Assembly (NCBI GenBank): GCA_040767965.1
Contig: JAXGNR010000020.1
Span: 1 to 12,316 of the forward strand
Length of the DNA: 12,316 nucleotides
Source: Atribacterota bacterium
Lineage (GTDB): Bacteria; Atribacterota; Phoenicimicrobiia; Phoenicimicrobiales; Stramentimicrobiaceae
Direction: 5' to 3'
Of this stretch, positions 100-389 are shown one piece after another. Numbering within the stretch: the stretch's first letter is position 1; each line of letters opens with the position of its first letter. The notes under the pieces were generated by a model. It did no database searches. It saw only the letters and a program-made list of their open reading frames with translations, and was not told the DNA's origin. The position numbers and the translations under genes are program-made.

Positions 100-128
100 T
101 TGACAAAATATTTTTTTAAATGTATAAG
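100..128 (+). promoter_or_regulatory. Sigma70/SigA-type promoter with AT-rich UP element, driving the 218-277 micro-ORF unit
   Basis: Perfect TTGACA (100-105), 17-bp spacer, TATAAG (123-128); an alternative TAAGAT lies at 125-130. A/T tracts occupy about 62-99. Confidence 0.7.
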
Positions 129-217
129 ATATTTAGATGTTTTATTATGAGAAAAGGTCGAAGTAGTTAAGAAATTGGTTCCTTGTCATTTAATAATAAA
201 AGAAAGAGGTGCCGAAA

Positions 218-277
218 ATGGCCAAATCTTGTGCAAAGAAAACACCCACAAAACAAACCGATAAAAAGAAAAAATAA
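218..277 (+). CDS. Putative 19-aa Lys-rich small protein MAKSCAKKTPTKQTDKKKK (not in the ORF track)
   Basis: SD AGAGGTG at 205-211, ATG at 218-220, tandem TAA TAA stops (275-280). It lies between the promoter at 100-128 and the hairpins at 300-320 and 347-389. Confidence 0.6.
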   Translation: MAKSCAKKTPTKQTDKKKK

Positions 278-299
278 TAATTTAATTTTATGCTGCTAA

Positions 300-320
300 C
301 TGGTTATTCACAGTAACCAG
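300..320 (+). other. Small stem-loop in the 3' UTR of the micro-ORF
   Basis: CTGGTTA (300-306) pairs with TAACCAG (314-320), extendable by a U-G and a U-A pair. No long U-tract follows. Confidence 0.45.
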
Positions 321-346
321 CTTAAATAAATTGCAAAATAAACAAA

Positions 347-389
347 AAATAAAGCCCTGAAACACACCACAGTTTTCAGGGCTTTATTT
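347..389. terminator. Bidirectional intrinsic terminator shared by the micro-ORF (+) and ole-oapA (-)
   Basis: Perfect 16-bp inverted repeat AAATAAAGCCCTGAAA (347-362) / TTTCAGGGCTTTATTT (374-389) with an 11-nt loop. T-rich tails exist on both strands, between convergent units. Confidence 0.85.

Follow-up and report, generated by a model that had tools for sequence, protein, structure and literature searches.

OLE RNA is among the largest bacterial RNAs of unknown function, and the list of its partners is still growing. The ribonucleoprotein (RNP) partners described in Halalkalibacterium halodurans are OapA, OapB, OapC/YbxF and bS21; YbxF/OapC is reported to be an L7Ae homologue (PMC9723947), and the small basic protein bS21 is reported to bind OLE (PMC12054373). 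According to a published transmembrane model, the P3 stems of OLE cross the membrane, which may call for a shield of ‘polyamines or membrane protein(s)’, and further partners are considered possible (PMC12265935). Such a membrane-crossing model raises the question of what neutralises the RNA charge there. Gene-content profiling of OLE partners used annotated or Prodigal proteins with a DIAMOND cut-off of 1e-10 and excluded non-Bacillota genomes; because of this protein set, this cut-off and the restriction to Bacillota, a product of 17 residues would be undetectable in the published profiling (PMC11332333).

Small genes of two other kinds also bear comparison with the locus described here. Dual-function small RNAs that encode a peptide include SR1/SR1P, RNAIII/delta-haemolysin and SgrS/SgrT, while bL36 and bTHX are very small basic ribosomal proteins. 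Our micro-gene lies in a window of 12,316 nt (the whole stretch of DNA analysed), which makes up the first 12.3 kb of contig 20 in an Atribacterota genome bin (98% complete, 2.33 Mb, G+C 0.328). Similar to the OLE RNP partners, it co-occurs with ole and adjoins oapA, and its product is small and strongly basic, as are bS21 and the basic face of OapA (PMC12054373, PMC12265935). Unlike these partners, the product has only 17-19 residues and no recognisable fold or family, and it is known only from one Atribacterota family. With SR1/SR1P, RNAIII/delta-haemolysin and SgrS/SgrT it shares a short, independently promoted and terminated transcript and the combination of a conserved peptide frame with a structured non-coding part, but its RNA has no known base-pairing target and no sequence or Rfam relation to them. 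The likeness to bS21, bL36 and bTHX lies in shortness, Lys/Arg richness and strong expression signals, whereas the micro-gene occurs in just 17 of 86 genomes of the phylum, outside the ribosomal operon, and the genome’s own bS21 is encoded elsewhere (C4:542071-542232). The unit would join two known kinds, the peptide-coding small RNA and the OLE-linked gene, and its function is putative. A literature search of main texts found nothing that links OLE RNA with Atribacterota or with a lysine-rich peptide.

Layout, transcription and conservation of the micro-gene

The first-pass annotation had placed at this end of the window a micro-protein gene convergent with ole-oapA. We confirmed that the promoter TTGACA-17-TATAAG, the Shine-Dalgarno (SD) motif, the ATG at 218, the 19-codon ORF, the 3′ hairpin and the shared terminator are all present in the sequence (Table 1), and that the placement is convergent, with OLE and the oapA-like ORF both on the minus strand. 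A double stop had also been claimed; it is present in the window (TAA TAA at 275-280), but an immediate second stop occurs in just 7 of 17 species. The ORF at 218-274 encodes MAKSCAKKTPTKQTDKKKK, with 8 Lys, 1 Asp and 1 Cys, and a GTG-extended form (209..277, 22 aa) appears in the ORF listing. Comparison with relatives showed that bases 100-389 form a predicted independent transcription unit of ~250 nt with its own promoter and terminator.

Table 1 Features of the micro-gene unit and of the convergent ole-oapA block, with mean pairwise identity among 17 species where calculated.
Feature	Position	Strand	Basis or description	Identity
30 nt upstream of promoter				0.54
A/T-rich UP-like tract, A-run abutting the -35	86-99	+	Sequence; A-run kept in relatives	
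Promoter TTGACA (100-105), 17-nt spacer, TATAAG (123-128)	100-128	+	Sequence and alignment	0.88 (spacer included)
5′UTR	135-217	+	Predicted start ~7 nt past the -10; little conserved save GGTCGA(T) at 156-161	0.37
SD AGAGGTG	205-211	+	6 nt upstream of ATG 218	0.81 (SD to ATG)
Micro-protein ORF, 19 codons, plus TAA TAA (275-280)	218-280	+	Sequence, translation, substitution pattern	0.80 (ORF)
Stop-to-hairpin spacer				0.45
3′UTR hairpin, 13 pairs, one-base bulge, 4-5-nt loop	295-326	+	RNAalifold	0.87
Single-stranded linker, AAATTGCA in the window	328-335	+	Alignment	0.90 (AAATCGCA)
Variable linker				0.65
Two-way terminator hairpin, 43 nt, common to micro-gene and oapA-like gene	347-389	+	Fold	0.87
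oapA-like membrane protein gene, 185 aa	467-1024	-	ORF; oapA by position next to OLE	
OLE RNA	1067-1652	-	RF01071, 482.7 bits, model positions 1-616 (full length)	

Sites of the form TTGACA-16..18-TATAA(T/G/A) are found only 37 times in the whole 2.33-Mb genome, and the micro-gene promoter is one of them. A simple consensus scan, whose rules require T at the last -10 position and a terminator loop of 3-8, listed neither this promoter nor any terminator in bases 1-2000. At the other end of the unit, the terminator stem is flanked by an A-run and a U-run in the RNAalifold structure and would therefore act in both directions; on the micro-gene strand it carries a C-rich loop and is followed by UUUAUUU. 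The outer pairs of the 3′UTR hairpin are broken in the window, which leaves a core at 297-324, and the adjoining linker reads AAATCGCA in most relatives. Overall, the fold of the whole 259-nt RNA reached z = -4.1 compared to shuffles.

Part of bases 1-2000 was contained in 24 RNA-type runs, from which four runs from four studies were compared. Contigs from three of the studies covered 157-353, 160-337 and 157-336 with zero differences to the window; they start at 157-160, inside the 5′UTR. Pieces of OLE were contained in all four runs. Assembled RNA-library contigs indicate presence only, without strand, ends or level, and DNA carry-over is possible. They covered neither 1-134 nor the oapA-like ORF nor 1676-2000, and run X4 was without the micro-gene, though such contigs cannot show absence; likewise, word depth, at 2-4 for the unit and from tens to thousands for pieces identical to OLE, is unusable for ranking genes. 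The abundance proposed for the micro-protein in the first-pass annotation thus gained no support.

A BLAST search against 40 relatives matched a stretch of 311 nt in 16 genomes, all from the same family, with 66-76% identity; the remaining six matches were A-rich pieces of at most 40 nt. A covariance model built on the stretch from SD to terminator (R1) was then used against 86 species genomes of Atribacterota and located the unit in 17 of them, that is, in 16 of 21 genomes in the family plus the window’s own genome, always as a single copy. With the same model, none of 64 genomes from six other Atribacterota families, including 30 from the sister family, gave a match, and in five family members (completeness 68-96%) neither the micro-gene nor OLE was found. 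A pattern scan of metagenome contigs added 21 further loci, all matched by R1, which represent 16 distinct DNA versions, 8 of them differing from every genome version. Genome and metagenome sequences pooled to 24 distinct versions, which were used for the coding and pairing tests below.

Conservation was uneven along the unit (Table 1). The near-invariance of the promoter spacer hints at a putative operator overlapping the promoter. The GAGG of the SD was invariant or nearly so over the 24 versions.

Coding signal and RNA structure

The micro-ORF was intact in all 17 species, with a length of 17-19 aa, and its length differences amounted to whole codons. The commonest product, which is also the consensus, was MAKGCGKKTKETEKKKK, with a net charge of about +5 to +7; Cys was present in 18 of the 24 versions and missing from 6. 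Across the 17 species, Nei-Gojobori estimates gave pS 0.55 and pN 0.093, i.e., a ratio of 0.17 in frame compared to 1.42 and 0.91 in the other frames. The 24 distinct versions gave a similar picture (0.169 in frame vs 2.995 and 1.576 out of frame), and the in-frame ratio was 0.036 among ten close versions. In two-fold codon boxes, third-base variants were synonymous in 13 cases and residue-changing in 2 (24 versions), and selection also acted on residues other than Lys (M-A-K-G, T, E). On this substitution pattern, the micro-ORF is under frame-specific purifying selection at the protein level. As the first-pass annotation had anticipated, SD, ATG and frame are kept in relatives and changes are biased to synonymous ones.

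An alternative explanation is that the ORF arose by chance in an A-rich spacer and that its conservation merely reflects the terminator region of oapA. The frame is indeed tiny, the region is A/T-rich, and promoter and terminator were both missed by the simple scans. However, the frame-specific substitutions, the codon-sized indels and an SD and ATG that are invariant in the species indicate coding, and the conserved promoter lies 250 nt past the terminator, where it is useless to oapA. RNA-library contigs cover the unit, and with relatives only 66-76% identical there are no near-identical recent copies that could account for the conservation. We therefore consider a chance ORF hardly credible. 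The micro-gene is very probably a real gene, and we infer that its peptide is translated. The earlier claim of a separate micro-protein gene with its own expression signals thus stood, given the conserved start, stop, SD and frame and the RNA-library contigs that cover the unit.

Downstream of the ORF, RNAalifold places a hairpin that begins 8-30 nt past the stop, followed by an open linker and the long terminator stem. Over the conserved structures, 96.6% of cells in the 24 sequences pair (97.1% in the 3′UTR hairpin), and 10 pairs were changed on both sides, compared to 2.6 +/- 1.2 in shuffles (0 of 500 reached 10) and 1-3 in slid controls. Most of these come from the terminator, where 9 of 18 pairs carry compensatory changes (helices 2 and 3). 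The 3′UTR hairpin contributed a single compensatory pair, seen in 3 sequences, together with 18 G-U/U-G cells; since the latter would be mismatches on the opposite strand, the hairpin is assigned to the transcript of the micro-gene. Synonymous sites show differences at 55-59%, against an identity of 87-90% in hairpin and linker; this better conservation argues that the RNA itself is under selection.

These observations bear on a dual-function small RNA, which the first-pass annotation had offered as an alternative and which gained ground with the nearly invariant hairpin and linker and the strand-specific G-U pairs. It is the main rival to the reading of the peptide as an OLE partner. The stem-loop, the linker (given under this reading as AGAUAAAUCGCA in most versions) and the C-rich loop would be the main effector of a dual-function or 3′UTR-type small RNA, with the peptide as a secondary product. 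Trans-acting small RNAs typically show such a succession of a hairpin, an open linker and a terminator, and the 3′UTR is conserved beyond the ordinary needs of an mRNA tail, so the RNA may be the main effector. One metagenome contig (L075, 1646-1832, plus strand) retains the RNA elements without the ATG, which is otherwise kept in 23 of the 24 versions: AAG ACC replaces ATG GCC, the other 15 codons still match the consensus, and hairpin and terminator are intact. However, the strong selection at the amino-acid level means that the peptide matters, and in the window both linker and terminator loop deviate from the consensus with no known co-varying target. Antisense pairing with the ole-oapA transcript was rejected, as no Watson-Crick complement of at least 9 nt was conserved in 12 genomes (exact matches, G-U and mismatches excluded). 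Nor does the RNA match an Rfam family: only OLE passes its threshold in the window, and the best other match in bases 1-470 scored 27.5 bits against a gathering threshold of 56. Overall, we regard the RNA as main effector as rather unlikely, and give no better chance to the modes of action it would entail, namely base-pairing with an mRNA or the binding or titration of a protein.

Masking of the SD by the 5′UTR was also considered, as an anti-SD stretch was suggested by the initial 5′UTR folds, before the comparison with shuffles. It was rejected as a general feature: in only 4 of 17 species were at most 10% of 60 shuffles as masked, and most values were around 0.5.

Linkage to OLE RNA and the oapA-like gene

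OLE was found in 14 of the 86 species genomes of Atribacterota, and all 14 belong to one family, the same as that of the micro-gene; in the three genomes that have the micro-gene but no OLE match, the locus is cut at contig ends. Among the 16 relatives’ loci, OLE lies convergent downstream in 14 (one OLE being clipped by the contig end), and the remaining two contigs stop 546 and 733 nt past the unit, so that OLE adjoins the unit in 14 of 14 loci with enough DNA. The oapA-like ORF is convergent to the micro-gene in all 17 genomes. The metagenome loci scanned (n = 20) contained OLE in 17 cases and were cut in two; the last one, L087, carries promoter, ORF, hairpin and linker (406-560, plus strand), after which G+C rises from 0.31 to 0.50 and an HU-like gene follows on the same strand right after the linker, with no terminator and no oapA. 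L087 is probably an assembly chimera.

The outer flanks behave differently. The upstream neighbour of the unit belongs to six unrelated clusters among 15 loci, and the far side, beyond OLE, is occupied by MscL, an HlyD-like or another gene. Since the linkage is kept while the outer flanks vary, the three parts travel as a block; as judged from these genomes, micro-gene, oapA-like gene and OLE RNA are a fixed three-part block in one Atribacterota family. A functional module would predict such travel, and so, equally, would one gain plus a shared terminator. The earlier idea of an OLE-linked partner gained genomic support (17 of 86 genomes for the micro-gene vs 14 of 86 for OLE, same family, adjacent), and of that kind only: micro-gene and OLE are physically linked, which confounds their co-distribution, the 17 genomes are related to each other rather than independent, and the shared terminator hinders separation.

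The block could also be inherited as such. A general nucleic-acid-binding or ribosome- or nucleoid-associated polybasic peptide without any tie to OLE would then be linked to it by common descent of the block; all carriers come from one family, and the composition of the peptide appears to resemble that of very small basic ribosomal proteins. However, a housekeeping role implies wide spread, yet the gene went undetected in 69 of the 86 Atribacterota genomes, all 30 of the sister family among them, and the flanks were reshuffled several times without the block ever being split. The histone-H1-like TPxK motif that had been read in the window sequence proved to be a two-codon insertion (TP) of the window only, i.e., of 1 in 24 versions, and the 22-aa GTG form had no Pfam or NCBIfam match, ribosomal families included. 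Neither the nucleoid-associated role proposed earlier, which loses its conserved motif as well as its distribution, nor the ribosome-associated one, given the same absence from the matches in 69 of 86 genomes, was borne out, and we consider a general polybasic peptide improbable.

Because the transcript converges on ole-oapA and shares its terminator, the ORF might instead be a cis-acting sensor, whose Lys codons report lysyl-tRNA or translation status and thereby set terminator read-through antisense into oapA and ole. About half of the codons are Lys (8 of 17-19), and the run of Lys codons ends 15-30 nt before the hairpin. However, the micro-ORF has no gene behind it in the same orientation; in 17 of 17 genomes it is followed by the terminator and then by the oapA-like gene, which is convergent. 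No alternative antiterminator pairing was seen by inspection. Residues besides Lys (M-A-K-G, T, E) are selected too, and no RNA contig bridging the terminator was seen, though contigs cannot show absence. A sensor of this kind appears quite improbable. A conventional leader peptide or attenuator was rejected, the regulated same-strand downstream gene being absent in 17 of 17.

On the opposite strand, ole and the oapA-like gene (467-1681, minus strand) form a stand-alone two-gene unit whose neighbours vary on both sides, unlike in Bacillota, where ole-oapA is described as embedded among isoprenoid genes. A promoter-like site (TTCAAA-18-TATAAT with TG, 1681-1652, minus strand) stands in front of ole, and a 26-nt A/T palindrome (1690-1715; ctagatataatataatatatatctag on the minus strand) is located just upstream of it. 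OLE is present at full length (449-491 bits) in loci L035-L048, on contigs of up to 222,917 nt with Atribacterota neighbours.

In the published profiling, 24 non-Bacillota OLE hits were set aside as possible transfer or assembly errors (PMC11332333). On the genomes compared here, OLE RNA is stably established in one Atribacterota family, and hence in a second phylum. Neither Pfam nor NCBIfam matches the oapA-like protein of the window itself; some of its relatives bear DUF21/CNNM-type names in some sources, and a few carry PF01595. A search for OapA homologues gave 241 hits. Among the best 120 of the 241, which were compared, the closest relatives outside the phylum had Halanaerobiales names, with 54-60% identity (60% for the Halothermothrix orenii relative). 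This Halanaerobiales-like OapA suggests a putative old transfer.

A candidate partner of the OLE-OapA particle

Polybasic N-terminal tails distinguish the OapA groups. Among the best 120 of 241 homologues, at least 4 K/R before the first transmembrane segment (TM1) were present in 37 of 48 other Bacillota-type proteins, compared to 1 of 24 Atribacterota-type and 0 of 23 Halanaerobiales-type ones, where the groups follow identity rank and a small number of source names rather than taxonomy, and truncated gene calls (21, 3 and 1 in the three groups) are left out. In the other Bacillota-type proteins of this set (best 120 of 241), the tail had a median of 11.5 residues before TM1 and 4.5 K/R. The micro-protein has a similar length and composition. 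This likeness is compositional only: the micro-protein is encoded apart from OapA, on the opposite strand, rather than as a fusion with it, and no homology is demonstrable.

Because the peptide matches the missing OapA tail in length and composition, and in view of the published shield proposal, we adopted the reading of a free polybasic peptide that may serve the OLE-OapA membrane particle. We hold it tentatively, as possible rather than probable. As a free polycation, the peptide would attach to OLE RNA, to anionic lipid head groups or to both, so that charge is neutralised at the place where RNA and membrane meet. It would thus supply in trans the polybasic N-tail that most other Bacillota-type OapA proteins carry in cis and that is absent from the Atribacterota OapA, while the 3′ stem-loop and the two-way terminator would make the short mRNA more stable and terminate the two convergent transcripts. 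Against this reading, the Halanaerobiales-type OapA likewise lacks a polybasic tail. A more specific version, in which the peptide is an encoded polyamine-like charge shield, i.e., a free version of the OapA tail that covers OLE RNA at its point of contact with, or entry into, the membrane, seems to us doubtful.

If it were true, a charge-shield peptide would be a fourth kind of OLE partner, with fewer than 20 residues and thus invisible to all protein-based profiling, and would give direct access to the membrane-spanning state proposed for OLE RNA. A polycation of 17 residues in a fixed block with ole and oapA makes the question of charge concretely and cheaply testable, and a conserved partner gene can escape gene-content profiling when the latter has a floor of 30 codons. 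Should the link to OLE fail, the unit would still add a clear new case of a small RNA that encodes a peptide, from an uncultured phylum.

The other described partners were searched for in the window’s genome. L7Ae-family (OapC/YbxF-type) proteins gave no match at E <= 0.1. For OapB, no small KOW protein was found besides L24, Pfam KOW being a weak probe for OapB; the KOW matches in the genome were L24, a 179-aa frame, which is probably NusG, and a membrane protein. The partner set of the Atribacterota OLE may therefore differ from that of H. halodurans.

Two further observations concern other genes of this genome. The L24 gene, which follows L14 (L066 1453-1807; C4, ~497.86-498.21 kb), consists of two overlapping frames of 78 and 52 aa, which could reflect a frameshift, either genuine or introduced by the assembly. 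Within the window, a 595-aa ORF (7812-9599, minus strand) comprises Dak2, the FakA middle domain and DegV, an apparent fusion of two fatty-acid kinase components.
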